Shown here piece by piece: positions 12,718 to 40,353 of a DNA stretch of 64,000 bases. The notes under the pieces were generated by a model, which searched no databases, was not told the origin of the DNA, and was given only the letters and a program-made list of their open reading frames with translations. Position 1 is the first letter of the stretch, and each line of letters opens with the position of its first letter. The translations under genes were made by a program, and so were the position numbers. The stretch is taken from IMG/VR virus record IMGVR_UViG_3300037722_000745, positions 32,001 through 96,000 of that record; one strand, 5' to 3'. This DNA comes from a virus. Taxonomy: Duplodnaviria; Caudoviricetes.

Positions 12718-13593
12718 TTACCAGGGCCCCTTACGCTTCGGATGGTATTTGGAGCCCGATGACCCGGGCGGCAGCAGATCGTCGGAGTTTGATTGGGATG
12801 GCCTCGAAGTTGATTGGGATGACTTAGACTGGTCAAACAAATTGCTTTTCGGTGGGTCGACTCCCATCCCAATTGCATTGTCGTTATCCTCGACTTCCTC
12901 CTGTACCTCTCTGCGCAATCGGTTGACTCTCTCTCTAGCTTCCTCAACCCCCCCACCCAGATCGACTATGTCATAGTTCTCTTGGATGTAGCCCCAAGCA
13001 CCAGGAGTGTAGGCTTCATGCCCTGGGCCAAAGAACTCAACATCCTCCGCAATCCAGGTGGGTTTGCCTGCGCCCATTCGAATCGCCATCGTTTCATGAA
13101 GCACATCCCCAGCAGCTCTGTTCCGGTGGAGAACCCCGAGCCGTATGATGACTAAGCTCGGCGGTAGAAGAAGATCGTTGAGGTTGTTGTAAGTGGCGAT
13201 CGTCTCCCGGTTTTCCTTGGATCTCTTCGTGTAGGCAAAGTCCCCAAGCCATACCCGCACCAGCTCCTGGTCGTCCGTGGTCCGAAACGTGAAACCCTTG
13301 GAGTATTCCCACTTCACCGAAAGGACCCAACGCAAGTGCCGGCAAACCATCTCCCAGGTCCCCCTCAGGAACAGGTTCTCTTGGGTGGCATCCCGGTCTT
13401 CAGTGTAGAGAGGACTCCGAACGTGCTTCACGCCTGAAATGACGGGACCCAGAAATGCATGAAGCTGCTTGCGTTTGAGACAAATGCACGGAATCGGAAT
13501 CAGGTCCTCGCCGTCGGTCTCATAGCGCCAGTGTTTTCCTTTGCACTGTGGGCATATGGTCTCCTCAGGCACGATTGGTAGATACACCGGCAT
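12718..13593 (-). CDS. DnaC/IstB-like helicase-loader homologue with a zinc ribbon and degenerate P-loop
   Basis: CPQC...PCIC zinc ribbon; directly upstream of dnaB; R....KPTWI resembles the DnaC C-terminus; no GK[ST] motif. Confidence 0.5.
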   Translation of the reverse strand: MPVYLPIVPEETICPQCKGKHWRYETDGEDLIPIPCICLKRKQLHAFLGPVISGVKHVRSPLYTEDRDATQENLFLRGTWEMVCRHLRWVLSVKWEYSKGFTFRTTDDQELVRVWLGDFAYTKRSKENRETIATYNNLNDLLLPPSLVIIRLGVLHRNRAAGDVLHETMAIRMGAGKPTWIAEDVEFFGPGHEAYTPGAWGYIQENYDIVDLGGGVEEARERVNRLRREVQEEVEDNDNAIGMGVDPPKSNLFDQSKSSQSTSRPSQSNSDDLLPPGSSGSKYHPKRKGPW

Positions 13594-16429
13594 CCGAGTC
13601 TCGCAGACTCTTCATCAGCTCGTAGGAGAAGCTACCCTCACTCTCGAAATTCAAAGCTCCGACCGCAGCTTCCCCAAGCACTTTGTCGATCAGGTCTTTC
13701 TTGCTTTGAAGGATTTGGAGTGTGTAGTGATCGATCGTCTTTTTTGCTCGACCCGGACGCTCCGCTACTAGGTGGATCGCTACGACGTGTTGGTGAGGAG
13801 AGCCGATACGAATCGGTCGCCCGAGAAGCTGGACGTAGTTCCCCCACGACCAAGGAGCATTGTAGAAGATCATCGCCGCAGCGGCTTGTAGGTTGATCGA
13901 CTCCGAACCCGCATCTGAGATGAAGATGACCCGCACATCGGATTCAGGATCCTGAAACTCCAGCATGGCCCTCTGCCGAGCTGGATTGGTCTTGGTGTCG
14001 ACTACTTTGCCTGTGATCGCCGTGCTCTCCACCCCAGCTTTCTTGCACAACTCCTGAAGACGGGGGATGAGGGACGCGAATCGTGTGTACACAATCACCT
14101 TCTCCCCATCGAACTCCCCGGTGATCAGATCCAACATGGCTTCCTCTTTCGAGGACAAGGATTTCACGTTGTCCGCCTCACCCAACAACTCGAGCCCGAT
14201 AGTGTCCCCCTCTTCGAAGCGAAGTAAGCTCAGAGAATCAACCGTTTGTTGGCAGTAGATGAGCGCAGTCAGCGTTTTGGTCTCTTCGTAGTCCCGCACC
14301 TCTCCGTCCCCCAAAGCGAGCACGCCTGACAGTGCCTCCTCGTACTTCGTGTTCTCCGCTTTAGATAACGTGACCCGAACGTCGCGCGTGAGAAGCTTGG
14401 GAAGCTCGTCCGAAATCTCATGCTTCGGCCGTCCGAGGAAGAACGGATCAATGCGCATCCGGAACAGCTCCAGGTTCTTGTACCCGATGATGATCGGAAT
14501 TTTCCTTCGACCTCCTACAGGTTGCCACTTGACCTCGCAGAACAGGTCGAGGAACTTCGTCTTCGTCGTGAAGACTCTTGGGTAGATGCACTTGTAGATG
14601 GCGTAACCCTCGATCAAGTTGTTCTTGAGCAAGGTAGCTGTGAGCCCGTAACAACGATTTGCATGGCTGGCTAGCTCTGAACACACCTGCCACGTCTTTG
14701 TCGACGGGTTCTTGAACGCGGTGCAGTTAGAAACTAGGGCCCCTCCAGCTATGTAGTTATGGTTACCCTCGACCTCCAAGTCATAGACGTAGTCAAGATG
14801 CTCCCGCACCTTGGGGGCACGCTTCCATGGAGTTTTAGCCAGCACCACATCCCGTACCAAACCAACCGTAGGGTTACGATCCAAACTCTCCAACAGGAGT
14901 GGTTCTTTACCTGGAAACTTGTGCTCCACCCCAGGTAAAGAGCCAGGCAACAGCTCTAGGAACCTGTCGGCCGCCTCTGCGTCCAAGTACAACACCCAAT
15001 GACGACCTGACTTGCTAATCTGCGCCTGAACCCCCCACCGCCACCGAAGCCAACCCGCTAACAATTCGTTCTCGCCGTAGGTGAATCCTTGCGTGTTTAA
15101 AATAATACGACGGCGAACCACCCCTTCTTTGGTTGTGTGCGTCTGCAACGATCCGTCATCCCCATACCAGATCGCAAGACCTAACGGGCCAACGCGGCTC
15201 AACCATTCTACAGAGGGGTGCTTACGGCCTTCTCGATGCGTAGTCAGTGTTGAACACAAATGTGGGTTGGCTCGTAGCCTGAACCGGCAAATGGGAGAAC
15301 CCCCGTACCCGCTAGGGGTTGTGCTAATCTCAGAGGTGCCAAGCGAGGCTAACAAGCCCTTCTTGAAATCCAGGTATCTTCGCTGTGCTTGCCCATGTAC
15401 AAAAGACACCCCCCACAAACTACGCTTGGGGTGGGACACACTAGCATCCCCAAGCAAACCCCCCAGAATAATCTGGAGTTGATCATCAGAAGGTATTGTG
15501 TCCGTAAAGGTAGCTGTCTCGGAGCCCTTCCTAAGACGCCCTGCTTCCGTTGGTTTGCCGTCGCATCTGTAGAATTTATGATTTCTGGTTACGATCACGC
15601 TGTTGGCATACCGAAACTCAAGTTTCACCAACCCCTTCGTGCGCAATGGGTTACGGACCCAACGGATTACCCGGCGTGGTTCCATGGAGTTGGTCGCCCA
15701 GTTCCATGACAACACGGATACAGGTTCTCGCCCGCATACGATCTTGCCTATCAACCGCTCAGAGCCATCAGCTAAGCGTATTGGAGTGTGGTACTCGAAA
15801 CATTCGTCGTACACGACAGTGAGGCCGTCGATCTTCTGCATGAGGCCGTTCAACAACCCGGGGCTCATCGGCTTCTTCATGTCCGGCTGCCCGTTCTTCT
15901 TGAGCGGACGGGTGGCTCCCTGATTCCAGTCGCGGACCAAGGGAGCATACCCCATGACCATCACCGCTTTCGGGTCGTCCGGGCCCGTTGGATGATTCAA
16001 AAAAGCGTCGTAGGTTTCCCGACGCTCATCCGGACCTCCGTTTGCCAAGTAGACTTGAATACCTGTGGCGAACTTGTCGATCTCTGCCGCCCACTGACGC
16101 AGGGCGCTCTTGGGGGTGATCACGACCACTTTGTTCGTCGGTTCTTTCTGCCAGGTGTAGCAAAAAGCTGCAATGCAGGTGGGCGTCTTGCCCGTGCCAG
16201 TGGCGTCCCCGAGCACCATCCTCTTCATCGACATCAGATGGAAGACCGCCTGGACTTGATAGTACCGGAGCTTGAACGGCTGGACTTTGCCGTCGATGCC
16301 CACGATCTCAGATCGCAGCATCGAGATGGGCTTGAGCGCTACCGTCTTGCTCTCCCGGACCTTTTTGAGAAGCTCGTAGACCTTCCTGTGCTTCTCTACC
16401 GGATCTTCTTTAGGTGTTTTCGCGGCCAT
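13565..16429 (-). CDS. SNF2/SWI2-family helicase, intein-containing precursor
   Basis: GDATGTGKT (motif I), DE|CTAFK (motif II, after splicing), GLTAT (III), VYTRF (IV), INLQAA/WSW and GRPIRIG (V-VI). Confidence 0.9.
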   Translation of the reverse strand: MAAKTPKEDPVEKHRKVYELLKKVRESKTVALKPISMLRSEIVGIDGKVQPFKLRYYQVQAVFHLMSMKRMVLGDATGTGKTPTCIAAFCYTWQKEPTNKVVVITPKSALRQWAAEIDKFATGIQVYLANGGPDERRETYDAFLNHPTGPDDPKAVMVMGYAPLVRDWNQGATRPLKKNGQPDMKKPMSPGLLNGLMQKIDGLTVVYDECFEYHTPIRLADGSERLIGKIVCGREPVSVLSWNWATNSMEPRRVIRWVRNPLRTKGLVKLEFRYANSVIVTRNHKFYRCDGKPTEAGRLRKGSETATFTDTIPSDDQLQIILGGLLGDASVSHPKRSLWGVSFVHGQAQRRYLDFKKGLLASLGTSEISTTPSGYGGSPICRFRLRANPHLCSTLTTHREGRKHPSVEWLSRVGPLGLAIWYGDDGSLQTHTTKEGVVRRRIILNTQGFTYGENELLAGWLRWRWGVQAQISKSGRHWVLYLDAEAADRFLELLPGSLPGVEHKFPGKEPLLLESLDRNPTVGLVRDVVLAKTPWKRAPKVREHLDYVYDLEVEGNHNYIAGGALVSNCTAFKNPSTKTWQVCSELASHANRCYGLTATLLKNNLIEGYAIYKCIYPRVFTTKTKFLDLFCEVKWQPVGGRRKIPIIIGYKNLELFRMRIDPFFLGRPKHEISDELPKLLTRDVRVTLSKAENTKYEEALSGVLALGDGEVRDYEETKTLTALIYCQQTVDSLSLLRFEEGDTIGLELLGEADNVKSLSSKEEAMLDLITGEFDGEKVIVYTRFASLIPRLQELCKKAGVESTAITGKVVDTKTNPARQRAMLEFQDPESDVRVIFISDAGSESINLQAAAAMIFYNAPWSWGNYVQLLGRPIRIGSPHQHVVAIHLVAERPGRAKKTIDHYTLQILQSKKDLIDKVLGEAAVGALNFESEGSFSYELMKSLRDSDAGVSTNRA
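14726..15802 (-). mobile_element. intein (359 aa) with LAGLIDADG homing endonuclease
   Basis: Starts CFEYHTPIRLADG; block B VTRNHKF; LAGLIDADG motifs ILGGLLGDAS and LAIWYGDDGS; ends VYDLEVEGNHNYIAGGALVSN followed by Cys+1. Confidence 0.92.
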
Positions 16430-24742: not shown

Positions 24743-27700
24743 CTACGCCTTACGGGTCAACGGGATTGCCGACGAGTCAATGAGCATCCGAGTGTTGTTG
24801 CGCACAAGCGGATGCCCCTCAATTCGATAGAGGTCCGCAGCCGCATACCCCTCTCCGGTGCCATTCGTACCAATACGGATGGGCGTCGGGGCTGAGGACC
24901 CAATGGGCGCATCGTAAACGCTGGTCAGAATCAGCATCATCAGCTCACTGCCAGCCGATGCCTCATTTGAACCCACGTTGGTAACGGAGTTCCGAACCAA
25001 CATGGCCCGTCCTTGAAGCGTACGAACATGATCCGTAGTGGCCGTGGCTACCGAGTTGTTCAGAGATACTGAGCCTCCGGGCCTCGGCCCGGAAGCCACA
25101 AACACGGAGCCACCACGATGCGTGCGGAAGTTCGTGTCCAGAGCGAAGTTGTTGGCCTCCCCATCTACATGGACCAAAACATCTCCAGGAGACCCAACTC
25201 CAGAGGTCGCGGTGCTCAGACGCACCTCGTGATGCTCGAGAGCCGGCGATGCAAGACCTGTGGATTGCCCTGATCCCACGGTATTTCGGTAGACGAGAGG
25301 AGCCATCACGTCCGTGTACCCGAAGTGCTGACCTCGGAAATCCTTGTCACGAAACAACGCTCCTAGAGGCAGCCGCTCCGTGCACCCGAGATACTCGGTA
25401 CCGATGTCCGGCCCGTCTCCAGCGAAGTTCGTAGGGAGAGCCTTGGGTCGTGGGTCCACACCAGAAGACGGCGGGTAGACGGACGGATCCTCGTAGGCCA
25501 CATTGGTGAACACCAAATCAGCGTCCGAAGCGTCTCCTGAATAGCGGCCCGTACCCAACGAGGTCGCGAAACTCAAGGAAGCTAGCACCTCCAACGCCTT
25601 CTCATTAGGCCGAGTCAGGTTGTCCGCATCCAATTCAGTCGACACCACATCAAAGGCATCGTCTGACATGAGCGGTCCAGGGACGTACGGGAGATCGATG
25701 TAGCTGTTCTGAGATCCCCAAGCATCCCCTTGGTACGGGGTGCGACTGTAGTTCACCAGGATCTGATCGGAGGCCGTAGCGGGTCCTGGGAGAAGCGCCG
25801 AAGGACCCGTAACACGCTTGTTGATGTTGTCTTCTCGGCTACCCGCAGCTCCCGGGTCTCCTCCGCTGCCCACATCGTCCCACGCGTTAACATTGCCAGG
25901 GCGGGTCAGTATGAGACGAGCCTCTGAATTCAGATCGAATGTGCCACGGTCAAACCCAAACACGGCCGCCTCTACCACATAGGTGCCCGAGGCGAAGTCC
26001 GCGATGGGGTTCGGCGACCGGGTGATATCGATCGCGTTGGCGTTCAAGATGAAAGTCGAGTCCCCATCCGAGTCAATTTCAATCCACATGGGCGGCCCAT
26101 CGCCCGACCTCATAGCCTGTCGCAGGAGATTCGTTGCGGTGCCGCCTCCGCCTGGCCCGCGCTCATCGGTGAAAGGGGTGCTCGAACTGATGTAGTCCTG
26201 GGCCTCGTAGACACCGAACAGGCGAGCAGCGCCATAGAAGGGCGGCAATTCCAGCCCCTCTCGACCTAGCCCTCGGGAGTCAGTGAAAAAACGCATCCCA
26301 GCAGTCTGATTCCCACTGATAACTCCCGCTGTGTTGAAACTGAGGGGGTTCGACGCAAAATCAATCTGGCTGAATACAGAGTATCGAAAAGAGGTGTTGC
26401 TATACGCAATGTAGTTGAATTGGTTCTCAACCACAGCGCCTGGAGTGCTCCGGATCATGTAGTTGATGCCGCTAGCAAAGTCGCCATCCTCCGCAATCAT
26501 TGGCACGTTCAACTCGCCCCAGCCCGGGACAAGGTGCCGGGGTAGGCTGACATAGATGTTGTTGAACGCGGGGTCCCCCGCTGATTGACTACAAAACAAC
26601 CCAAGGGGGTCTGTCTGTGTCCACTTCGGCGTGACGCCATCGACTGCGTTGAGGGGCATGACTCCTTGGGCGCTGTGAGTCGTGTAGCTGATGCCCACAG
26701 TAGCCTGGGCTCGAACAGGACGGTCGAGGGTGTAGCTAGTGGCTCCAACACTGAGGATCGTATAACGACCGGCGCCGGGTCCAGACGGAATCACCAAGGC
26801 ATCCCCGCCAACCGTAGTCCCTACACCACTCGCGTCCTCAAACACCGGCGTGTTAGCGCTGCTTGTGAAGCCTGTCGCACTGGTCAGTTTGGGAGTTGGA
26901 ACAGGGTTCGCTGCGTCCCCATCCACTGTCAGAAGATTGGGGAATTCGATTCGACGGAAAGGCGTAGCAATCACGGTCTTGCTGCCAAGATCCGCGTACA
27001 TCTCCGTGATCGACGGTAGCAAGCCGTTGAACTCTGCCGTCCGGTACTTCGCCCACAGAGGAGCCCACGCGACACGTGCTACGTGGTTGGTGTCAGGGAT
27101 GCCTCGCTCCTGCACCATCAGCAGCGACGACGGGTTGAGATAGGTGATGTTGTGCAGCGAGTCGGGGCGACGTGCGAGACCGCGTCCCGGACCATAGACT
27201 GCATGCACCCGGATGTGGAGCTGACGCGGAGACGCCGTCGTCGTAAGCTGGCTCGGGAAGCTTCCCGATAGCGTGATGATCAGGTTGTCCGCAGGCCCTG
27301 GGACCGCTGGCGTCACTGTGTACATGGTCGACGGTAGGTCGCCCGTCTCGCCAGCAAGACGCAGTTGAACAGCGCCCGTAACGCTGTCATTCAGCCACCG
27401 GATCTGATCCGTAGCACCCGCTTGAAGCCCCGTTTTGAGTTGGTTGACGGGGATCTCAATGATGTCGCCGGCTGTGAATTGGTTGCCGACCGTCTGGTTC
27501 GTCGTGTTAACGGTCAGAGATAACGACCACGGCTCGTTGATCGCCACACCAGGGCCCGGCGGCACAACACCCGAGTTGGGTCGAACCACGCACTCGATTG
27601 GTTGGATCGTCGCCGCATCAGAGAAGACCGTACGGATGTTGTCTGGAGCGTCGAGTTGCGTCACGCCCAATGACACCGCGGCCGACTGAATCGCATCCTG

Positions 27701-29062
27701 GTAATGGACGAAGGTCCCTTGGGGCCCACCGCCGGAGCGCTTCCAGTTGGCTCGCAGCTCACCCCTCAGCAGCTTGTCGACGTTGTTCTGAAGCAGCGCC
27801 GTGTAGTCCATCCCGTTAGGATTGACCGAGTGCCGTAAGTCGAGAATATCAGTGAGAGCGATCTGGTCTGAAAACAGCTCGTCGGGGCGCCCAGAAATGA
27901 CACGGATCTCAGACCCCGCCAAGTGAGCTTCCCCGATCGTTCCGTTGGTGCCTCGAGTCAGACCATTCAGCGTCGTACCGGTGATCGATGTGTAGGTCAG
28001 GATCTCGTCGCCGATTTGAATCGTCACCGCCGTCGCCGGGGAGGCGGGGAGCGGAATATTCGTGACTGAAGCAAGCGTCGCCGAAGTGGCCGTTGCGTTG
28101 AGATCCGCCGCAAGGGTTGGAACGGTAGAGAACGTCTTAACGCCTGTGCGATCGACTGCCGTCGGGTTGCGGTCGAACCCCCCATTCAAGTTCTGCGATG
28201 GGTTTCCATTCCAACCAATCGAGTTCCTACGGAACACCACCGCGATCGGAACGGCATAGCTATAGCCATCCACGGTCCCTAGCGAGGAACTAGTCCCATC
28301 ACCCGCACGCCACAACCCAGGGTCCCCCAGCTCCTCCCGCATGTTTTCAAACGTGAACGCAGTCACAGCCGAAGCCGCACCCTGCGCTTTGACAACCACA
28401 GGATCGAAGCCATCCGGGTATGTCGTCAGACCTACCAAGCCCTTGACCACACGGATGCGGTACTGGATTTGAACTCGCTGCTCTGTCTCAAACCCAAGAG
28501 CAGGATCGAGCAAATCATCTGGGAGAAAAGAGCTGCCAGACTCGACATTACCGTAGCGGTAGATGCCACTAGCAGACGGCTTGTTTGTAGTTGACGGGTT
28601 AGGCTGAATCCTGGCCTTCCACACCTCCAAAAAGACGAAGTCAATCCGGAAGTCCCCTGAATTGGAGGGAGGGGGATCAAGCGCAATGACGTTCGTCGTG
28701 TCGGTGTCATTAGGACTCCCGGGAGGAGTGCCCGTCCGTGTGCCTGTCACCGGGATCAACCACCCGTTGACGTTCGCCCACATGATAGATCGCTGCTCAC
28801 CGGCTCGCTGCGGACCGAACTTGAACCAGTTCGACCATGTGGAGTGGGTTTGGTAACTTGCCTGGGGGTTGGTCTCGTTACCCAAAAACCCAGAAGGTGT
28901 GCCGCGCAAAACCGCAGACTGCAAAGCTTCGTGAGCCAACTGCTGTTGCAGTATCAGAGCTGCGTCGGTTGGAGGCTTGCCCTGCTGCCAAATAGTGGTG
29001 ATGTACTGCGTGTCTGCCGATTGCAGGACACGGGACACTCCGGGACCTAGATTGTCGCTCAT
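24743..29062 (-). CDS. large virion structural protein (baseplate/tail associated)
   Basis: 1439 aa, G/T/S/P-rich; N-terminal part paralogous to 37771..40353; lies in the tail-fibre module. Confidence 0.75.
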   Translation of the reverse strand: MSDNLGPGVSRVLQSADTQYITTIWQQGKPPTDAALILQQQLAHEALQSAVLRGTPSGFLGNETNPQASYQTHSTWSNWFKFGPQRAGEQRSIMWANVNGWLIPVTGTRTGTPPGSPNDTDTTNVIALDPPPSNSGDFRIDFVFLEVWKARIQPNPSTTNKPSASGIYRYGNVESGSSFLPDDLLDPALGFETEQRVQIQYRIRVVKGLVGLTTYPDGFDPVVVKAQGAASAVTAFTFENMREELGDPGLWRAGDGTSSSLGTVDGYSYAVPIAVVFRRNSIGWNGNPSQNLNGGFDRNPTAVDRTGVKTFSTVPTLAADLNATATSATLASVTNIPLPASPATAVTIQIGDEILTYTSITGTTLNGLTRGTNGTIGEAHLAGSEIRVISGRPDELFSDQIALTDILDLRHSVNPNGMDYTALLQNNVDKLLRGELRANWKRSGGGPQGTFVHYQDAIQSAAVSLGVTQLDAPDNIRTVFSDAATIQPIECVVRPNSGVVPPGPGVAINEPWSLSLTVNTTNQTVGNQFTAGDIIEIPVNQLKTGLQAGATDQIRWLNDSVTGAVQLRLAGETGDLPSTMYTVTPAVPGPADNLIITLSGSFPSQLTTTASPRQLHIRVHAVYGPGRGLARRPDSLHNITYLNPSSLLMVQERGIPDTNHVARVAWAPLWAKYRTAEFNGLLPSITEMYADLGSKTVIATPFRRIEFPNLLTVDGDAANPVPTPKLTSATGFTSSANTPVFEDASGVGTTVGGDALVIPSGPGAGRYTILSVGATSYTLDRPVRAQATVGISYTTHSAQGVMPLNAVDGVTPKWTQTDPLGLFCSQSAGDPAFNNIYVSLPRHLVPGWGELNVPMIAEDGDFASGINYMIRSTPGAVVENQFNYIAYSNTSFRYSVFSQIDFASNPLSFNTAGVISGNQTAGMRFFTDSRGLGREGLELPPFYGAARLFGVYEAQDYISSSTPFTDERGPGGGGTATNLLRQAMRSGDGPPMWIEIDSDGDSTFILNANAIDITRSPNPIADFASGTYVVEAAVFGFDRGTFDLNSEARLILTRPGNVNAWDDVGSGGDPGAAGSREDNINKRVTGPSALLPGPATASDQILVNYSRTPYQGDAWGSQNSYIDLPYVPGPLMSDDAFDVVSTELDADNLTRPNEKALEVLASLSFATSLGTGRYSGDASDADLVFTNVAYEDPSVYPPSSGVDPRPKALPTNFAGDGPDIGTEYLGCTERLPLGALFRDKDFRGQHFGYTDVMAPLVYRNTVGSGQSTGLASPALEHHEVRLSTATSGVGSPGDVLVHVDGEANNFALDTNFRTHRGGSVFVASGPRPGGSVSLNNSVATATTDHVRTLQGRAMLVRNSVTNVGSNEASAGSELMMLILTSVYDAPIGSSAPTPIRIGTNGTGEGYAAADLYRIEGHPLVRNNTRMLIDSSAIPLTRKA

Positions 29063-29137: not shown

Positions 29138-29333
29138 GGTTTTCGAGAGGCCCGGTGGTGTGTTACCCTCGGGAGTCTCTCGCATTCTGCGGGTTCTCTG
29201 AGAATTCAATAGGTTAGAAAGATCCGGATCCCGATCGGCCTCTGGATCCAAGGGGTCCCAACCCATGATCCCACAGGGGGGTCTCGCAAACCGCCTTGTG
29301 AACCTCCGAATTCACACGGTTTCTCAGAATCCC
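29138..29333 (+). promoter_or_regulatory. CRISPR leader 1
   Basis: Non-coding 196 bp abutting repeat 1; about 93% identical by hand alignment to 32402..32597; IHF-like ATTCAATAGGTTA at 29204-29216. Confidence 0.75.
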
Positions 29334-29884
29334 CTTGAGGGAGGTGAAAGCCTCCCTCGTAATTGAAACAAGACGGCGAAGGGCAACGCAACCTCGGAAC
29401 CTACGGGCTTGAGGGAGGTGAAAGCCTCCCTCGTAATTGAAACTGCTCGCTGAGTGATCGATCGAGATTGGTGGTGAAGCTTGAGGGAGGTGAAAGCCTC
29501 CCTCGTAATTGAAACCTGGAGCTGGGTAGCCGCTGCCTCCGCTGCCATGGCCCTGCTTGAGGGAGGTGAAAGCCTCCCTCGTAATTGAAACCAGGAAGCC
29601 CAGGCCGTCTACGCGTCGCAGAGCGACCCTTGAGGGAGGTGAAAGCCTCCCTCGTAATTGAAACCAGACAACTGAGTTCCTACGGAACACCACCGCGATC
29701 GGGCTTGAGGGAGGTGAAAGCCTCCCTCGTAATTGAAACGACGGGCGACGTCGTCGCTGGCCTGCCGGGATTCGGCTTGAGGGAGGTGAAAGCCTCCCTC
29801 GTAATTGAAACCAGGCGGCTGCGCTCCTTGACGGCGGCGACGAATCCGCTTGAGGTAGGCGGATGCCTACCTCGTAATTGAAAA
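29334..29884 (+). CRISPR. CRISPR array 1: 8 repeats, 7 spacers (36-40 nt)
   Basis: Repeat CTTGAGGGAGGTGAAAGCCTCCCTCGTAATTGAAAC (36 nt; usually preceded by G) at 29334, 29408, 29480, 29556, 29629, 29704 and 29776; variant terminal repeat at 29849; 8-bp hairpin and ATTGAAAC 3' handle. Confidence 0.97.
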
Positions 29885-29938: not shown

Positions 29939-32380
29939 ATGACCAGATCCATTTTCGTTTTCTCTCTGATTCTAACCGCCTGTAGTACCGGGGGCCCTAT
30001 CGAACTACCCTCCTCCAAGGAAGGGTTCTCAGATGGAGGGGCTAGTTTCGTTGGCTCTGAACTTAGCGATGACGGGGGTAATAACCCAACGATCTCCGAC
30101 TCCAGCGTCACAGCCGACGGATCGTCTACAGCAGCCGACGGATCGTCTACAGACGCACACAAGCCAGAAGAAGCGGACGGGGGGGCCCCACCAGTCGATG
30201 CTGGGTCTCCCGCCGATGCGGACGCGGAGACAGACACCGAAGACGGAGGGGACTCCGATCTTCGTACTCCTGATGGGGGCGAAACAGAAACGGACGCGAC
30301 TCCCGACGACGATTGCCCAGGCTCTGGCCCGGGAGTAAAGTGTGAAGGTCGGGACAGATTCGCGTGCGTCTCCGGACAGTGGGTCATACAAGAGACTTGT
30401 GACCACACGTGTCAAGCAGGGGCTTGTGTAGGGGAGTGTGACCCGGGAAGCACGGACTGTTTGAACGAGCACCCGCGGACTTGTAACTCCAACGGGCTAT
30501 GGGACGTGGGTTTGGCTTGCTCGTTTGTATGCTCGGAAGGTTCCTGCGTAGGCGAGTGTGACCCCGGGGCCACCGACTGCCAAGGCGATGTGCCTCGAAC
30601 CTGCAACTCGCAAGGGCAGTGGGTAGAGAGTTCGGCCTGCGCGTTTGTATGCTCCGACGGAGCCTGCGTGGGGGTGTGTGAACCAGGCGATCGAAATTGC
30701 TCGGGAGACACTCCTCGTCAGTGCGATGCTTCGGGCCAGTGGGTCAACGAAGCCGCTTGTCCCTTCGTTTGCAGTGAAGGTGTGTGCTCCGGTGCATGCG
30801 ACCCAGGAGCAACAAGCTGCGCAGGGGACACCCCCCGTACGTGCAATGATTCCGGTGTGTGGGTCAACGGAACGACGTGTCCTTTCACATGCTCGGGAGG
30901 TTCGTGTACCGGGGTGTGTGAGCCTGGCGACCGTGATTGCTCGGGCCTGACACCCCGAAGCTGCAATGCCGCGGGGCAGTGGGTCAACGAGACCGCTTGT
31001 CCCTTCGTTTGTTCGGGAGAGGGCGTCTGTATCGGAAGCTGCACTCCGAACGACACTGATTGCCAGGGAGATGTCCCCCGGACTTGCAATTCGCAGGGTC
31101 AATGGGTGAGCGGTTCTGCCTGCCAGTTCGTGTGCTCTGACGGTGCCTGTACCGGCGTGTGCGAACCTGGCGATGTCCAGTGCTCGGGGAGCCAGATTCA
31201 AACCTGCAACTCGCAGGGCCAATGGGGCACTGCGGCCAACTGCCCAAGCGTGGCCGGTGCCAATGCTTACTGCCTGAACGACGCCTGCACCTTCGACTGC
31301 CAGCTCGACTACGACGATTGCGACGGCAACCCTGCCAACGGCTGCGAAGCCCACCTGGAGACCGACAGCAACAACTGCGGGAGCTGCGGACACTCTTGCT
31401 GCGGGGGTGCTTGTGGCAGCGGGACATGCGAGGTCTACGATTCCGGACTCCGCACCGTTTCCACCTGGGAGGTAGACTCCAACAGCATTTATACGACCGC
31501 CGTTAACGGTCAGACGGTGACCATCCAGCAGACACCACGTGAAGGGGGCGCCACATCGGCGATGGCCTCAATCACTGGCGACACAACATCCCCCCGGGTC
31601 ACCGATTTGGCCTCAAACGGAACCAACCTGTTTTGGAGCCTTCGAGAAGGGGGGGTGTTGTCGGTGCCGCTCGACGGTTCTGGACAGTACGAGTCCTGGT
31701 ACATAAACACCATCGACACATTCACCGTCAGTTCCAATCACGGGGCGTACACGTGGTACAACCTCTCAGCCACCGGAGAGCTATTGTTGGATGCTACTCG
31801 GGTTTACTGGTTCGGGACCAGCTCCGGTTTCGTCAACTGGAAGTGGCTGGTGACCCCCACACAGACCGGCGGGTCATTCGTGCTACCTGACGCTCCGACC
31901 CATCTAGTCTCAGATGGGGATTATATCTACGCGACGCCCCATACGGCACTGAATCCAATCAGCCGTCACAACCTTGCGTTCGACAACAACGAGAGCTTCG
32001 TCACATCAACCTCGACGAACTACGTCTTCGGACGAACCAGCGCCAGCGACGGTGTCTACCTCTACTACGTGTACTATGACGGCCCCAACCCCGCAGATGG
32101 GGGCATTTGGAAGAAGCCCCTGAACGGCGGATCCGCTACCCAGATCGTAGCTGACCCCCGAGTGCAAGCATACGTCGCTACCGACGGCTTGAACGTCTAT
32201 TACATCTCGGATCCAAACACATCCAACCCGGTCATCCGCAAGGTTCCAGTGACCGGTGGTAGCTCCGCCCCGCTTGTGACGTACGACCTACCCACCTGGA
32301 ACTCCGAGCTGAAGGTCGTGGACGAGTGCCTCTACTGGCATCGGAGCACGGGGATCAAGGCCATCGCCGTCAATCCCTAG
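29939..32380 (+). CDS. Cys-rich repeat lipoprotein with a C-terminal beta-propeller-like domain (myxobacterial type)
   Basis: Lipobox LTAC at residues 12-15; acidic linker; eight ~40-aa Cys-rich repeats (about six Cys each); CDGNPANGCE..TD.NNCG.CG motif; YW/SDG-containing blade-like repeats. Confidence 0.8.
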   Translation: MTRSIFVFSLILTACSTGGPIELPSSKEGFSDGGASFVGSELSDDGGNNPTISDSSVTADGSSTAADGSSTDAHKPEEADGGAPPVDAGSPADADAETDTEDGGDSDLRTPDGGETETDATPDDDCPGSGPGVKCEGRDRFACVSGQWVIQETCDHTCQAGACVGECDPGSTDCLNEHPRTCNSNGLWDVGLACSFVCSEGSCVGECDPGATDCQGDVPRTCNSQGQWVESSACAFVCSDGACVGVCEPGDRNCSGDTPRQCDASGQWVNEAACPFVCSEGVCSGACDPGATSCAGDTPRTCNDSGVWVNGTTCPFTCSGGSCTGVCEPGDRDCSGLTPRSCNAAGQWVNETACPFVCSGEGVCIGSCTPNDTDCQGDVPRTCNSQGQWVSGSACQFVCSDGACTGVCEPGDVQCSGSQIQTCNSQGQWGTAANCPSVAGANAYCLNDACTFDCQLDYDDCDGNPANGCEAHLETDSNNCGSCGHSCCGGACGSGTCEVYDSGLRTVSTWEVDSNSIYTTAVNGQTVTIQQTPREGGATSAMASITGDTTSPRVTDLASNGTNLFWSLREGGVLSVPLDGSGQYESWYINTIDTFTVSSNHGAYTWYNLSATGELLLDATRVYWFGTSSGFVNWKWLVTPTQTGGSFVLPDAPTHLVSDGDYIYATPHTALNPISRHNLAFDNNESFVTSTSTNYVFGRTSASDGVYLYYVYYDGPNPADGGIWKKPLNGGSATQIVADPRVQAYVATDGLNVYYISDPNTSNPVIRKVPVTGGSSAPLVTYDLPTWNSELKVVDECLYWHRSTGIKAIAVNP
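30314..31290 (+). repeat. eight tandem ~120-bp Cys-rich coding repeats
   Basis: Consensus C[DE]PG.T.C.G..PR.CN..GQWV....C.FVCS.G.C.G; end coordinate approximate. Confidence 0.85.
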
Positions 32381-32401: not shown

Positions 32402-32597
32402 GGTTTTCGAGAGCCTCAGTGGTGTGTTACCCTCGGGAGTCTCTCGCATTCTGCGGGTTCTCTGAAAATTCAATAGGTTAGATGGATCCGGATCCCGATC
32501 GGCTTCTGGATCCAAGGGGTTCCGGCACATGATCCCACAGGGGGTCTCGCAAACCGCCTTGTGAACCTCCGAATTCACACGGTTTCTCAGACTCCCC
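32402..32597 (+). promoter_or_regulatory. CRISPR leader 2 (duplicate of leader 1)
   Basis: 196-bp near-copy of 29138..29333; IHF-like site at 32468-32480. Confidence 0.75.
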
Positions 32598-33586
32598 CCT
32601 GAGGGAGGTACCCGCCTCCCTCGTAATTGAAACGACGATGTCGATTTTCTGCGCCTCAGTTGCAGGCTTCCCCTGAGGGAGGTACCCGCCTCCCTCGTAA
32701 TTGAAACGACGCGGCTGAGATCTACGAGCGGATCTGTGATCCCCTGAGGGAGGTACCCGCCTCCCTCGTAATTGAAACAAACAACCCCTCGCCGACAACG
32801 TAGGACTTGCTACTGCGGTCCTGAGGGAGGTACCCGCCTCCCTCGTAATTGAAACGACGCGGCTGAGATCTACGAGCGGATCTGTGATCCCCTGAGGGAG
32901 GTACCCGCCTCCCTCGTAATTGAAACTAGTGGGCGAAGTGGAGTGCAGTCGCTGCGATGTGGTCCCTGAGGGAGGTACCCGCCTCCCTCGTAATTGAAAC
33001 TCATGACGACGTGGGGCGTATCGCCCAGCGCTTCGGCCCCCTGAGGGAGGTACCCGCCTCCCTCGTAATTGAAACAAACAACCCCTCGCCGACAACGTAG
33101 GACTTGCTACTGCGGTCCTGAGGGAGGTACCCGCCTCCCTCGTAATTGAAACGGTCTAACTGACGGCGGCATCGCGTCCGTGCTCTGGCCCTGAGGGAGG
33201 TGAAAGCCTCCCTCGTAATTGAAACCACACGATCGCGTCCAGCGGGAGATCGTACCCCCCTCCCTGAGGGAGGTGAAAGCCTCCCTCGTAATTGAAACTA
33301 ATTGAAACAGATCGTCTCGCAGCAAGTTCAGGTCGAAAGATGCTGGCCCTGAGGGAGGTGAAAGCCTCCCTCGTAATTGAAACACCGTGGCGCACGAGGT
33401 CGGGCACTGGCAGCTGCACCGGCCTGAGGGAGGTGAAAGCCTCCCTCGTAATTGAAATGTAGGGAGAGATCCGACCCATGGCCCGTGAGCCCTGAGGAAG
33501 GTGAAAGCCTCCCTCGTAATTGAAACTAGAGCTGCGTGGTGCGGGTGGAGGCGTGGCCGGCGTCCTGAGGGAGGTGAAAGCCTCCC
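32598..33586 (+). CRISPR. CRISPR array 2: 13 full repeats + 1 truncated repeat, 13 spacers (11 unique)
   Basis: Repeats CCTGAGGGAGG-TACCCG-CCTCCCTCGTAATTGAAAC (first 8: 32598, 32672, 32743, 32820, 32891, 32965, 33040, 33117), then loop TGAAAG (33190, 33263, 33348, 33423, 33491, truncated 33564). Confidence 0.97.
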
Positions 33587-37200: not shown

Positions 37201-37771
37201 GAACTACACTACCACCACCCGCGGCCTGGAGGTTGTTGGAGAGCGTGAGGATCAGATTCTCAAAGCGGCTTCGCGCTCCCAGACGCAGGTTGCCCGCCAA
37301 GTTTTGGATGTTCACATCACTTCGGCGCGAACCAATCACGGTGCAGTTATCAAACACTGCAGAGTCGTCCCAGGTGTACGTTCCTGGCCTTAGGAACAAC
37401 ACTGGCTGTCGAGTCGAGAGTAGACCCGAGGCCATAGCATCGATCAAAGCACTAGCACCCGCGAAGTCAGCCACACCAGCAGGGTTAGCGTCCAAGACCC
37501 AGAAGGCCCGGGAGTTAACCGCGGCTAGAAGCTCGACTAGCCCTGTGTCGACCGACCCAGCTGTGATGGCGAGATCCGTGTCTCCAGAATGGCTTCCCTG
37601 TCCAATCGCCGTCGACTGGTGGGCGTCAATCGTGTCAGTGATGTGAGCTTCTAGAGCGGCGCCGGAGCTTCCTGACGAAGGAAACACAAGGGCTCCCGCC
37701 GGCACCGTGTTAGAGGGCAGCCTACCCGGTCCAGGTTGCACCGTAGCGACAGGATCTTTGGTGGATGGCAT
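34214..37771 (-). CDS. tail fibre / receptor-binding protein (beta-helix + BNR-type propeller)
   Basis: AHITD..DAHQSTAI fibre-base motif; long pectin-lyase-like beta-helix; C-terminal repeats VAVG..GEIQTSPTG.TWT.R. Confidence 0.7.
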   Translation of the reverse strand: MPSTKDPVATVQPGPGRLPSNTVPAGALVFPSSGSSGAALEAHITDTIDAHQSTAIGQGSHSGDTDLAITAGSVDTGLVELLAAVNSRAFWVLDANPAGVADFAGASALIDAMASGLLSTRQPVLFLRPGTYTWDDSAVFDNCTVIGSRRSDVNIQNLAGNLRLGARSRFENLILTLSNNLQAAGGGSVVREVALAVTGDINVSTTRNVFEHITASSPAKFVISSTDNEVRGFNNSQFEVTGSRNLIEDGIVTSVNGLTDPVLDVSGDYNMIRDVVVDSLSAYNSVTVDLSGDHNTVDGLTLSNYVIPAGGVSGVADTGRQNTILNFVATSIPAPAIAYNGALGATLRNFRIESTGGVISAMAGVDCYGLGIHDGVVLSDDGQAGGFSNSGGVLSNVVFQGGDGSAGAGNQLFYGWGTPRTNSFGLPAQSLVLRDVRMEYGQSNTRTTGGVGTGQPVVFFGGALTTVTTDHGACEVHGLRIQPSSTVVNQHQDSLLVIDSYGGFEGTASTFNDVTIDLGEVQWAASGNGRATIFTSGSARAMIVEIRGGLINPPDDEDPNSQMCVVRNLQVLNIKEPDFGLDARGIVKATGVDFYGIQVEGPSSGSHGTSSFSGETGVQLYNCYSRNVYVGRGVIYKSTAAYVDVFRRSVLDSSLVVCNLSAVSASSLVRMTASGESYPTVKNIRVLMLDGSTGALIDSLGKGRVTDCILELSASISQPVLTASGATVVENCTLSRPNVSAPFIELTNADFFEARSNNFLLGGAGTGTGIQVTTSDDVVLESNRFSRTTGGPYEAIVTDSGSSRVYISNTRVDSNGDTAALLLAGDYGIVTGTTLLGDGAGDALTIEVSGDYNRVNDSVFINADVEGGGSVVDTGLGNIIDGNPSEAIEVVALSALRDVTSGVANDLTGITYDPANRSLVAVGLSATITAALDPETAFASQTADAAYAGDFNAVVWDPTLTAFAAVGTSGEIQTSPTGATWTQRNTGGANLNGIASNGAGTFVAVGNTSTIFSSTALATWTSRTSAGTTSIRDVAFGAGLFVAVGDGGEIQTSPTGVTWTIRTSGTVLDLDRIRYHPLHGFVVIGIGTPLTNRMLYSADGITWHEPGGDFFYAVPLLMDRTISVFGGDPDTAMLGITGAYKGFGTPDYAVDHVVSAMVPAHAIVADRSVWVVGDGGQIFRGPRVK

Positions 37772-40353
37772 TAGCTAGCCCTCTTGCTGAGGAGATTCCC
37801 CTTAAGCCTGAACACAGCAGCTGTTGTGGTGTTGGTGTCCAAGTCTGCATCAAAAAACACACCGTTCGTCGCATCGAACAATGCGTACCGAATCAGCAAA
37901 ACCAGCACGAGTTGTCCTCGATACCCAAGTGCGCTATCCGCAGCTAGCTCCACGATCAGAGGGTAGATGTCCTTGTGCCGATCGGGGTTGCTGAGATCTT
38001 GAGCGTAGGCGTTCGGGATGTACCCTGCGGGCACTTCCTTGAAAAACGTCCTGCCCTCTACGTCGATATCCCCACCGCCGCGGTTTAGCGTCAGGGCATC
38101 AGGCTCTGCGACCATCGGCACATAGACCGGCAACCGTAGAAGTCCCGTTTGAGCATCAAAGTCCGCCACAGAAACTTCGGATCTCCCGGACAACTCACTC
38201 TCACCGGAGTACGTGGCCAAGTTGCTGGGAAAGATCCCACCCGTCTGAACATACGCTCCTTCAAAGGGGTAACCTTCGTCCTGAGACCCGGAACCAGTTG
38301 TCAACGAGTACAGGAAATCACTCGTAACCCTTGGTATCACGTCCAAGCTTGCACCCAAGAGAGCGGCCCTTGCTGTTTGGGGCGCTGCCGTGCGGAAATA
38401 GATCGTGAGTTGTTCGTCATTCTGTGGAAGGGGACGTCGGGCTGAGTAGGTGACCACGATCGTGTCGCCCGGACTGGCTGCCGCTGTGAAAGACACGATT
38501 CGACCCGTCACGTCGACACCGGACGTCGCCGTAGGCACCGCATTGACCGTCACGCTCACGAGAGATTCGATCCTCTCCGGCATGTACACAGTCGAAGTCG
38601 ACCCTACAGGGAACGCCGCCAAGGTATGCGTAAGGATGTCGACTGTCTCGTACTCGAGATGCACCTCTCGATGGGGGTAATCAAAGTCAGGAGACAAAAG
38701 CTGGTCATAGGAGACAGGGGCTCCAGCCGGAAGCTGTGCAGGGTTGTTGAGGAAGAAGCTGTTGGCCCCGTAGTCCGCAACCGGAGTGTGAGACATTCCA
38801 ACGCCCGTTGGGTATCCAACCAAGAGGGTCACGTGCAGCGGTTCGTCTGTGACCGCTGCGTCCACCGTGAGGAATAGAACCGTGAGGGAGGTGATGGGAA
38901 CCGCGCCCATCCCGGTGATCGTTTGGATATGGGGTATTGCGTCAGCAGTCACTTTCGGAGGAACGTCTACCCACCGAGCATCGAGCACATCCATGAACCG
39001 GACGTCCGCCGGAGCGTGGGAAGCCCAGTTGAAAGTGTAAACCCCTGTTCCGGGGTACACAGCCATCGCCGTGGGATCAATCACGACGGAGGACCCGGCC
39101 ATCCAACCACCTCCGGGTGCCGGAATGATCACAGTGACCGTCTCCAAGACGGATCGATCAGAGAACCTTCGTCGGACCGCATCGAATTGACCGATGAACT
39201 CGCCCGCAGTTGTATCACCGGTTGTGACCCCATCCCCGGGTAGGACTCCGATCTCATTCGCTGTAAAGACTGTCGAGCCTGAGTACCCACCACCCGTGGG
39301 GGATGTGTCCATGAACTCAGATCGCAGAGCGTTGTCGAACAAGAAGTTCACGTTGCGTTCGAGCAGCTCCCGCATGTCCCATCCAGTTGGGGACACACCG
39401 GAACGAAGATCCAGGACGTCTTCCGCTACGAGGAGATCGTAGAACAACCCGTCGGGACGATCCGAAGGGCCCGGCGTGGCTACTCCCCCATTGTGATTGA
39501 GGCGACGATCGAAAGCCGCTGTGTTACGCCGAAACACCGCCAGCAGGGGAACCGCGTACATATAGCCGTCCACAGTGCCCAAGGTGTTGGCCGGATTGCC
39601 ATCACCAGCCAACCAAAGGCCAGGATCTCCACTGGCTGATTGGTTTGCATAGGCGAACAACGTAGCGGACCCATCTGGGGCCGCAGCACTGGCGGGCACC
39701 GTGTTCGCGACCACGGTCGGGTCATCCAACGCATAGGGGTAGGTGGCAAGATCTACTCCCTGCACGACCCGCAGCCGGTATTGGATCTGCACTCTCTTTG
39801 TGGTCTCTGATCCGACGTTCGCGTCGAGGATATCATCGGCGTAGTTCAGGACCAGATCGTTAGCCGGATCCGTAGAGACGTTACCCTCTTGCCAAATACG
39901 GCCCGTAACGCTCTTGCCATCGACGTCCGGGGAAGCAGACAGAAGTTTCCTCCATACCTCCAAGAAGACGAGGTCCGTGCGCTGAACACCCTGTCCAGCG
40001 GGCGCCGCTCCCAAATCGATCTGGTTGGTGCCCGTGGCGTAGGAATGCCGAACCTTGATCAACCAACCATTGACGTGGGCCAGGATGTCGTTGGGGATTT
40101 CAATGGTGTCGACAACGGCCGATGCGCTGAAGATGGCGCCAACCGGATCTGTTTGCTGCAGGAAATCATCCGACACCCAGCCCGAGGGCGTAGAACGCCG
40201 CAGGACGGCTTGAGCCGCGCCCCCGTCCACATCCTGGAGAAGATTGTACTCTCTGTCTAGTACCGGGACCCCGGCTTTGTAGACGACCGTTTCCCAGGCC
40301 CTCCCCTCGGGCACGTTGTAACCACTGGTCCCAGGCCCAAAATTCTTTGCCAT
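37771..40353 (-). CDS. virion structural protein, paralogue of 24743..29062
   Basis: Shared motifs D.VFLEVW, ET..RVQIQYR.RVV, DPGLW.AGDG, LGTVDGY.YAVP..VFRRN. Confidence 0.75.
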   Translation of the reverse strand: MAKNFGPGTSGYNVPEGRAWETVVYKAGVPVLDREYNLLQDVDGGAAQAVLRRSTPSGWVSDDFLQQTDPVGAIFSASAVVDTIEIPNDILAHVNGWLIKVRHSYATGTNQIDLGAAPAGQGVQRTDLVFLEVWRKLLSASPDVDGKSVTGRIWQEGNVSTDPANDLVLNYADDILDANVGSETTKRVQIQYRLRVVQGVDLATYPYALDDPTVVANTVPASAAAPDGSATLFAYANQSASGDPGLWLAGDGNPANTLGTVDGYMYAVPLLAVFRRNTAAFDRRLNHNGGVATPGPSDRPDGLFYDLLVAEDVLDLRSGVSPTGWDMRELLERNVNFLFDNALRSEFMDTSPTGGGYSGSTVFTANEIGVLPGDGVTTGDTTAGEFIGQFDAVRRRFSDRSVLETVTVIIPAPGGGWMAGSSVVIDPTAMAVYPGTGVYTFNWASHAPADVRFMDVLDARWVDVPPKVTADAIPHIQTITGMGAVPITSLTVLFLTVDAAVTDEPLHVTLLVGYPTGVGMSHTPVADYGANSFFLNNPAQLPAGAPVSYDQLLSPDFDYPHREVHLEYETVDILTHTLAAFPVGSTSTVYMPERIESLVSVTVNAVPTATSGVDVTGRIVSFTAAASPGDTIVVTYSARRPLPQNDEQLTIYFRTAAPQTARAALLGASLDVIPRVTSDFLYSLTTGSGSQDEGYPFEGAYVQTGGIFPSNLATYSGESELSGRSEVSVADFDAQTGLLRLPVYVPMVAEPDALTLNRGGGDIDVEGRTFFKEVPAGYIPNAYAQDLSNPDRHKDIYPLIVELAADSALGYRGQLVLVLLIRYALFDATNGVFFDADLDTNTTTAAVFRLKGNLLSKRAS

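Follow-up and report, generated by a model that had tools for sequence, protein, structure and literature searches.

The near-self spacer and the gene it matches

We have analysed a stretch of 64,000 nucleotides (nt), hereafter called the window, from a huge phage represented by the IMG/VR record IMGVR_UViG_3300037722_000745, in which one spacer of a phage-borne CRISPR array closely matches a gene of the phage itself. The window comprises bases 32001-96000 of a single contig of 323,174 bp. In IMG/VR this contig is classed as linear and viral, and CheckV estimates its completeness at about 68%. As phage hallmarks the contig carries a family A DNA polymerase, a DnaB-like helicase, ThyX, an intein-bearing SNF2 helicase, Baseplate_J and Ig-like tail components. 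Positions given below are those of the window unless they are marked as genome positions.

The array in question, array 1 (29334..29884, + strand), consists of eight repeats of 36 nt and seven spacers. Its terminal repeat is degenerate and keeps the hairpin via a compensatory change. A leader (29138..29333, +) precedes the array, and a copy of it is found at 32402-32597 in front of a second array; the two copies are 92-98% identical and both lie on the 5′ side of their array. The gene that is matched (24743..29062, minus strand) codes for a protein of 1439 aa, which is a probable tail or baseplate-associated protein.

The spacer concerned is spacer 5 (29665..29702, +), the fifth of seven from the leader. 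Without any gap it aligns to the protospacer-like site 28212..28249 (+), located 1.45 kb away, with 34 of 38 nt identical. The mismatches fall on spacer positions 3, 4, 8 and 9, that is all within the first 9 positions, and positions 10-38 (29 nt) are identical. Directly 5′ of the site is a TTC (28209..28211, +), the candidate position of the protospacer-adjacent motif (PAM) for a type I-C-like CRISPR RNA (crRNA). As the leader is located upstream and the degenerate repeat at the far end, array 1 should be transcribed on the + strand, which places the TTC on the PAM side. A preliminary description made from the sequence had reported this alignment in the same terms, and direct alignment reproduced it in all points, namely the number and positions of the mismatches, the identical 29-nt end and the 5′ TTC. 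Only the spacer length of 38 nt probably has to be revised. The base in front of the repeats is not constant (G, C or A); the repeat therefore is 36 nt, and spacer 5 is probably 39 nt long and would run to 29703. With this length there is a fifth mismatch at the PAM-distal end, G at 29703 versus A at 28250.

When the 34 spacers associated with the array-1 repeat were compared with the whole 323,174-bp genome by blastn-short, spacer 5 gave its self match with E = 3e-11, and none of the other 33 spacers had a self match beyond chance 12-17-mers. With a 29-nt exact match at this E value, chance is excluded as the source of the similarity. That chance similarity or an assembly artefact should lie behind the match is hardly credible: the only point in its favour is the metagenomic origin of the contig, both ends of which are broken off within repeats, whereas independent contigs from six other sequencing runs reproduce the protospacer region without differences, and contigs in two runs reach from the protospacer region to the leader edge.

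The site is in frame with the minus-strand open reading frame 24743-29062 and encodes residues 272-284 of the target protein. Translated in this frame, spacer 5 reads PIAVVFRRNSVVW and the phage's own gene PIAVVFRRNSIGW. Of the four changes one is synonymous (TCA to TCG). The other three are non-synonymous, lie in two neighbouring codons and turn the VV of the spacer reading into the IG of the own gene. Read on the complementary strand, the TTC covers the third base of the Trp284 codon and bases 1 and 2 of the Asn285 codon; at the equivalent site it is present in 8 of 23 relatives.

For the 1439-aa protein no Pfam match was found. It has weak PHROG matches to a tail protein and a tail fibre (E 1e-7 and 6e-6), and its gene is located inside a block that contains Baseplate_J; a lead to DUF4815 was not confirmed. 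The protein is conserved in huge phages, with at least 977 homologues on contigs of up to about 620 kb and best identities of 82-83%. Judged from these matches and the gene neighbourhood, it is plausible but not proven that the target is a virion gene.

The preliminary description had placed the match in the gene's most conserved motif. This does not hold, as the 13 residues rank only 233rd of 507 windows for conservation within the N-terminal 520 residues. In fact the mismatches fall in a variable dipeptide beside an invariant FRRN: among 121 homologues FRRN never changes, and variation is found at both residues that separate NS from W. At residue 282 V is found in 78% of these homologues and the I of the own gene in 15%, and the own G283 occurs in 3%. 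The SVVW of the spacer reading is common among the closest relatives and the own SIGW is rare among the 121 homologues. By parsimony the spacer would thus keep the ancestral state and the resident gene would be the derived one.

Origin of the spacer and clustering of the mismatches

The DNA of the homologous site in the 23 relatives matches spacer 5 at 16-29 of 38 positions, with many differences at wobble sites. In contrast, the own copy of the phage matches at 34 of 38 positions and does not differ from the spacer at any wobble site within the 29-nt tail. Neither the four loci that we fetched nor the 23 IMG/VR relatives contain a source for the spacer above 29/38. According to these comparisons the spacer was donated by this lineage itself or by a sibling that is far more similar to it than any database sequence. 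The preliminary description had argued from the wobble positions for a very close relative, which agrees with our result; the same evidence also covers this lineage.

Under uniform rates the probability that all four differences fall within positions 1-9 of 38 is 126/73815 = 0.0017. However, positions 1-9 hold 32% of the variability among the 23 relatives, and if the sites are weighted accordingly the probability becomes about 0.011. The variable dipeptide therefore explains part of the clustering, not all of it. The four changes are confined to 7 nt and none of the nine other codons contains a synonymous change. This speaks for selection for escape, or for a local event of multi-nucleotide change or conversion, and less for neutral drift between siblings.

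Candidate effector, proposed seed escape and possible exclusion of kin

Cas5c cuts the repeats of type I-C systems, which are usually ~32 nt long, at the base of the hairpin. The repeat which would give the 5′ handle of the spacer-5 crRNA (29629..29664, +) has a type I-C build as far as its sequence goes: a stem of 9-10 bp with a 4-nt loop is followed by a tail of 10-11 nt ending ATTGAAAC, and the folded repeat has a minimum free energy of -18.2 kcal/mol (z = -5.7). The spacer-5 crRNA would carry a handle of 10-11 nt ending AUUGAAAC. As in the canonical type I-C systems of D. vulgaris and L. pneumophila, the hairpin is thus followed by about 11 nt with the ending ATTGAAAC. In addition, the length of the spacers is variable, 34-40 nt across the arrays of this repeat and 33-37 nt in Legionella (PMC5602111), and the protospacer has a 5′ TTC, which is the canonical PAM of type I-C (PMC5602111; 10.1101/2022.06.15.496202). 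The window repeat differs from the canonical systems by its length of 36 nt and by the lack of cas genes in cis, and PAM and seed rules are applied here by analogy. No Rfam CRISPR-DR family matches the repeat.

A helpful comparison is offered by G010, the one of 15 related huge-phage records that contains cas5c-cas8c-cas7c (E 2e-40, 3e-23 and 7e-54, respectively) together with a 793-aa SF2 helicase. Its homologue of the target protein is 65% identical. In G010 the cas genes and the helicase gene immediately precede arrays with a 36-nt repeat which, like the window repeat, is built of a hairpin and an 11-nt tail. The locus matches the type I-C variant which co-occurs with CasPhi in huge phages, as described by Al-Shayeb et al. 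(2020, PMC7162821). Given the I-C-like build of the repeat and these cas genes of a relative, TTC is a sensible PAM. To this extent the reading of TTC as a type I PAM in the preliminary description is supported; no Cas effector that goes with this repeat, be it of a host or of the phage, was found. As side observations on G010, about 30 repeats stand beside its cas genes (L037:8524-10870), where many stem variants keep their pairing via two-sided changes and the 11-nt tail is constant; the genome also has a solitary repeat copy far from the arrays (298020-298058), and no targets of the G010 spacers were found among the relatives.

The phage encodes a Cas protein of its own outside the window, a CasPhi/Cas12j of 718 aa (genome 218308-220464, minus strand; E 2e-159 to PDB 7LYS). 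In its locus (gene at L007:3309-5465) it is adjoined by an array of 7 repeats (L007:2702-3188) that end in a hairpin and GAC and are unrelated to the window repeat. Thus Cas12j is ruled out as the user of the window arrays. Profiles for DevR, Cas5d, Cas1, cas3_core, Csd2 and Cas5d-TIGR (Pfam, NCBIfam) revealed no class 1 cas genes in the 323 kb, the Cas7c and Cas8c proteins of G010 and a tblastx comparison with the G010 locus found no homologue on the contig, and the open reading frames adjoining the arrays had no PADLOC matches. As the contig has no homologue of the G010 locus, the effector would come either from the host or from that third of the genome which is absent from the assembly. No missing genome piece came to light when a gene near the start of the contig was looked up by identity, and the closest other contig with Cas7c (L038) is unrelated to this phage. 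The combination of CasPhi and I-C-like arrays in a huge phage, without Cas1 and Cas2, resembles the systems of Al-Shayeb et al. (PMC7162821), who also report phage spacers with targets in the structural genes of other phages; the genes of the I-C variant named there (Cas5d-like, Cas8, Cas7, helicase) are present in G010 and are not found on this contig.

The position of the mismatches might give a hint to the function of the spacer. In type I systems R-loop formation starts at the PAM-proximal seed, and phages escape by changes in the PAM or in the PAM-proximal part of the protospacer, where a single change is usually enough. The concentration of substitutions at PAM-proximal positions is shared by the own allele of this phage. 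It differs from such escape mutants by having four substitutions with the PAM intact, and by the presence of the spacer in the genome of the escaper itself. Changes clustered in the seed beside an intact TTC are the signature of an escape from type I interference. We suggest that spacer 5 is a copy of the phage's tail-protein gene in its ancestral form or in that of a sibling (NSVVW). A type I-C-like Cascade, encoded in the unassembled third of the genome (with G010 as the example) or supplied by the host, would load the spacer-5 crRNA and read TTC as the PAM, and the crRNA would recognise TTC together with the ancestral allele. Mismatches 3, 4 and 8 would be part of the seed, at which the R-loops of type I systems are nucleated, and mismatch 9 would adjoin it, so that the carrier would escape; effects of seed mismatches are cited in PMC5602111. 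A co-infecting close relative with the ancestral allele and TTC would be targeted, which would amount to a heterotypic superinfection exclusion among kin. Taken as a whole, a seed-escape pair of spacer and own allele that confers self-tolerance and possibly excludes close kin is in our view the best explanation, held with a confidence that is evenly balanced.

A similar situation has been described for virus-borne arrays which target close relatives and whose carrier has its orthologous locus mutated against self-targeting (PMC6858448; PMC7099407). Mini-arrays of viruses have been modelled by Iranzo et al. (2020, PMC7099407), who discuss the priming cost of imperfect self-matches and cite Faure et al. 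(2019). A close parallel are the mini-arrays of the portogloboviruses SPV1 and SPV2 (Medvedeva et al. 2019, PMC6858448). There as here, the viral array is equipped with a leader, cas genes beside it are lacking, the spacer is aimed at a gene near the array, and the orthologous site of the carrier is point-mutated against self-targeting, in the phage by four substitutions which would block the targeting; superinfection exclusion of close kin is the role proposed for these mini-arrays. In contrast to the phage, for which neither a sibling nor a host repeat was found, the targeted siblings of SPV1 and SPV2 were observed, the targeting is reciprocal and the repeats match host arrays. Moreover, SPV1 and SPV2 have 1-2 spacers, whereas the phage of >323 kb has four arrays with at least 34 spacers.

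Several results weigh against the explanation by seed escape and exclusion of kin. No sibling allele was found in IMG/VR with the exact 29-nt core or a wobble-tolerant version of it, and an allele-tolerant 27-nt pattern gave nothing in JGI metagenome contigs. This stretch is contained in 16 public runs; in the contigs of the 8 runs that were examined, 6 of which cover the protospacer, only the own allele and no other letters are present, which is weak negative evidence as the contigs have a depth of 2-6x and rare variants are dropped. The 90% protein cluster contains only the target protein and an identical C-terminal fragment and thus no variant, and a short-fragment search of the protein collection likewise gave no variant of the target. 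Hence the perfect protospacer with TTC in a sibling, which the preliminary description had named as support to be sought in IMG/VR and in reads of the same sample, was not found in IMG/VR or in the run contigs, where the low coverage makes for weak evidence, and in none of these collections does the spacer match a close co-occurring virus. Furthermore, no targets of the other spacers were found in the 15 related phage records, the fetched loci, INPHARED and IMG/VR, so that TTC as the PAM rests on one protospacer-like site (n = 1), for which the chance is 1/64. Cas5, Cas7, Cas8, Cas1 and Cas3 were not found on the 323-kb contig, which is about 68% complete and starts in an array. The repeat, in full or as its 18-19-nt 3′ half, is absent from the GTDB species representatives, JGI contigs and IMG/VR; a single match of this search was a chance match within a coding region. 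Finally, three of the four changes are in the dipeptide that is variable across the family anyway. The proposal of the preliminary description that self is protected by seed polymorphism and that the spacer serves a kin-discriminating warfare between phages therefore stands in part: the site of the carrier is indeed mutated at the PAM-proximal end, with a clustering of p 0.0017, or about 0.011 if site-weighted. The warfare itself would follow by analogy with published virus arrays; neither a sibling, nor an effector, nor any other spacer matching a relative was found.

That no sibling was found in IMG/VR, JGI contigs, run contigs or the protein collection would also be expected if the spacer were the relic of an escape event and had no present role against kin. 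It would once have matched this lineage, having been taken up either by a host, with the phage capturing the host's array later on, or by an adaptation machinery that inserted the phage's own DNA; the seed substitutions would then have been selected because they rescued the phage, and the spacer would merely persist in the middle of the array. We consider this as possible and rather less probable than a role in excluding kin. The signature of an intact PAM, seed-clustered changes and a derived own allele is the same and is explained equally well. In addition, the spacer is the fifth of seven from the leader and thus not recent, and as there is no Cas1 on the contig its acquisition depends on another genome, where the phage's own DNA may have been the most abundant donor. 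On the other hand, the spacer is intact between perfect repeats, although array 2 shows duplication and reshuffling of spacers, and the published near-self spacers of virus-borne arrays target co-occurring relatives (PMC6858448). A relic crRNA would also still hit relatives with the ancestral allele; the two explanations differ in history and selection and not in mechanism.

A more far-reaching form of this idea, which we regard as unlikely, is that adaptation proteins acting in trans cut the spacer out of phage DNA and placed it in the array of the same phage. This would have made the lineage fix a seed-escape allele with multiple substitutions in a conserved tail-protein motif, a self-inflicted diversification. 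If true, phage-borne CRISPR would drive reproductive isolation between sibling huge phages and leave a datable record of the split in the genome.

The preliminary description had also considered that the crRNA is antisense to the mRNA of the tail gene and could regulate it. The crRNA, or an array transcript that is left unprocessed, might do so by antisense RNA-RNA pairing or via a nuclease-free Cascade acting as a roadblock. The crRNA would be derived from the + strand and the gene is on the minus strand, and 29 contiguous nt are complementary to the mRNA; the antisense orientation is nevertheless an outcome with a 50% chance, and a self match is found in only 1 of 34 spacers. Known crRNA-like regulators keep the PAM-proximal pairing and lose the distal pairing. 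In spacer 5 the broken part is the seed, which should prevent the binding of DNA by Cascade, as is established for type I seeds (PMC5602111). The phage I-C variant is without Cas3 and a repression without cleavage is raised as a possibility by Al-Shayeb et al. (PMC7162821). Considering both sides, regulation of the own tail gene appears very improbable.

Should the explanation by seed escape and exclusion of kin be true, the phage would be a clean natural example of a CasPhi-bearing huge phage which carries a guide against its own kind and is itself unharmed, and it would support the view that virus-borne CRISPR promotes the divergence of sibling viruses. Near-self spacers in virus-borne arrays as well as CRISPR arrays and an I-C variant in huge phages have already been published; what stands out here is the seed-only pattern beside an intact PAM, the setting with multiple arrays and the CasPhi phage. 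In the part of the text of PMC7162821 that we could draw on, a near-self spacer with seed-only mismatches is not described. As the concept is known, the value of the locus lies in a well-defined test case and not in a new principle. Guide and escape allele are 1.45 kb apart on one molecule, so that the ancestral and the derived state are both recorded, and the own and the spacer-encoded allele are a ready pair of targets with which to measure what PAM and seed are required by the little-known I-C variant of huge phages.

Further arrays and neighbouring genes

The repeat family of array 1 forms four arrays, located at genome 1-257, window 29334-29884, window 32598-33586 and genome 120213-121201. 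The contig starts within the first of them, whose leader and upstream DNA, possibly with cas genes, are outside the assembly; the opposite end of the contig is a different tandem repeat. The fourth array has 13 repeats and two over-long "spacers" of 72 and 64 nt, one of which holds a truncated repeat. In addition, five solitary copies of the repeat are found, three on the + strand (genome 10711-10747, 223771-223807 and 286130-286166) and two on the minus strand (genome 285970-286003 and 322376-322409).

Array 2 (32598..33586, +) comprises 13 full repeats and one truncated repeat with two loop variants, of which TACCCG is found towards the leader and TGAAAG distally. Two of its spacers are duplicated, one of 34 nt (at 32708 and 32856) and one of 40 nt (at 32779 and 33076). 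The mixed loops and the duplicated spacers point to internal recombination. For its newest spacer (32634-32670) we considered the baseplate-J gene of the phage (51411-51439) as the source and rejected it, as the two share two 10-mers and the alignment score is no better than at unrelated sites; an origin from the baseplate J of a relative was also discarded, as it implied two extra residues that are found in no relative.

Between arrays 1 and 2 there is a gene for a Cys-rich repeat lipoprotein (29939..32380, +) that is built of roughly 40-aa (120-nt) repeats and for which an Atlas search gave a weak Myxococcota lead. Homologues of this gene adjoin the target gene in the relatives G002 and G003, where no arrays are present, and so the arrays look as if they were inserted around a pre-existing gene.

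A paralogue of the target protein with 860 aa is encoded at 37771..40353 (minus strand). Both proteins share the N-terminal domain (about 37% identity) including the VFRRN motif, the paralogue carrying the motif GTVDGY...VFRRN as in the target protein. The gene of the SNF2-family helicase (13565-16429, minus strand) is split by an intein with a LAGLIDADG endonuclease, and some relatives are intein-free.

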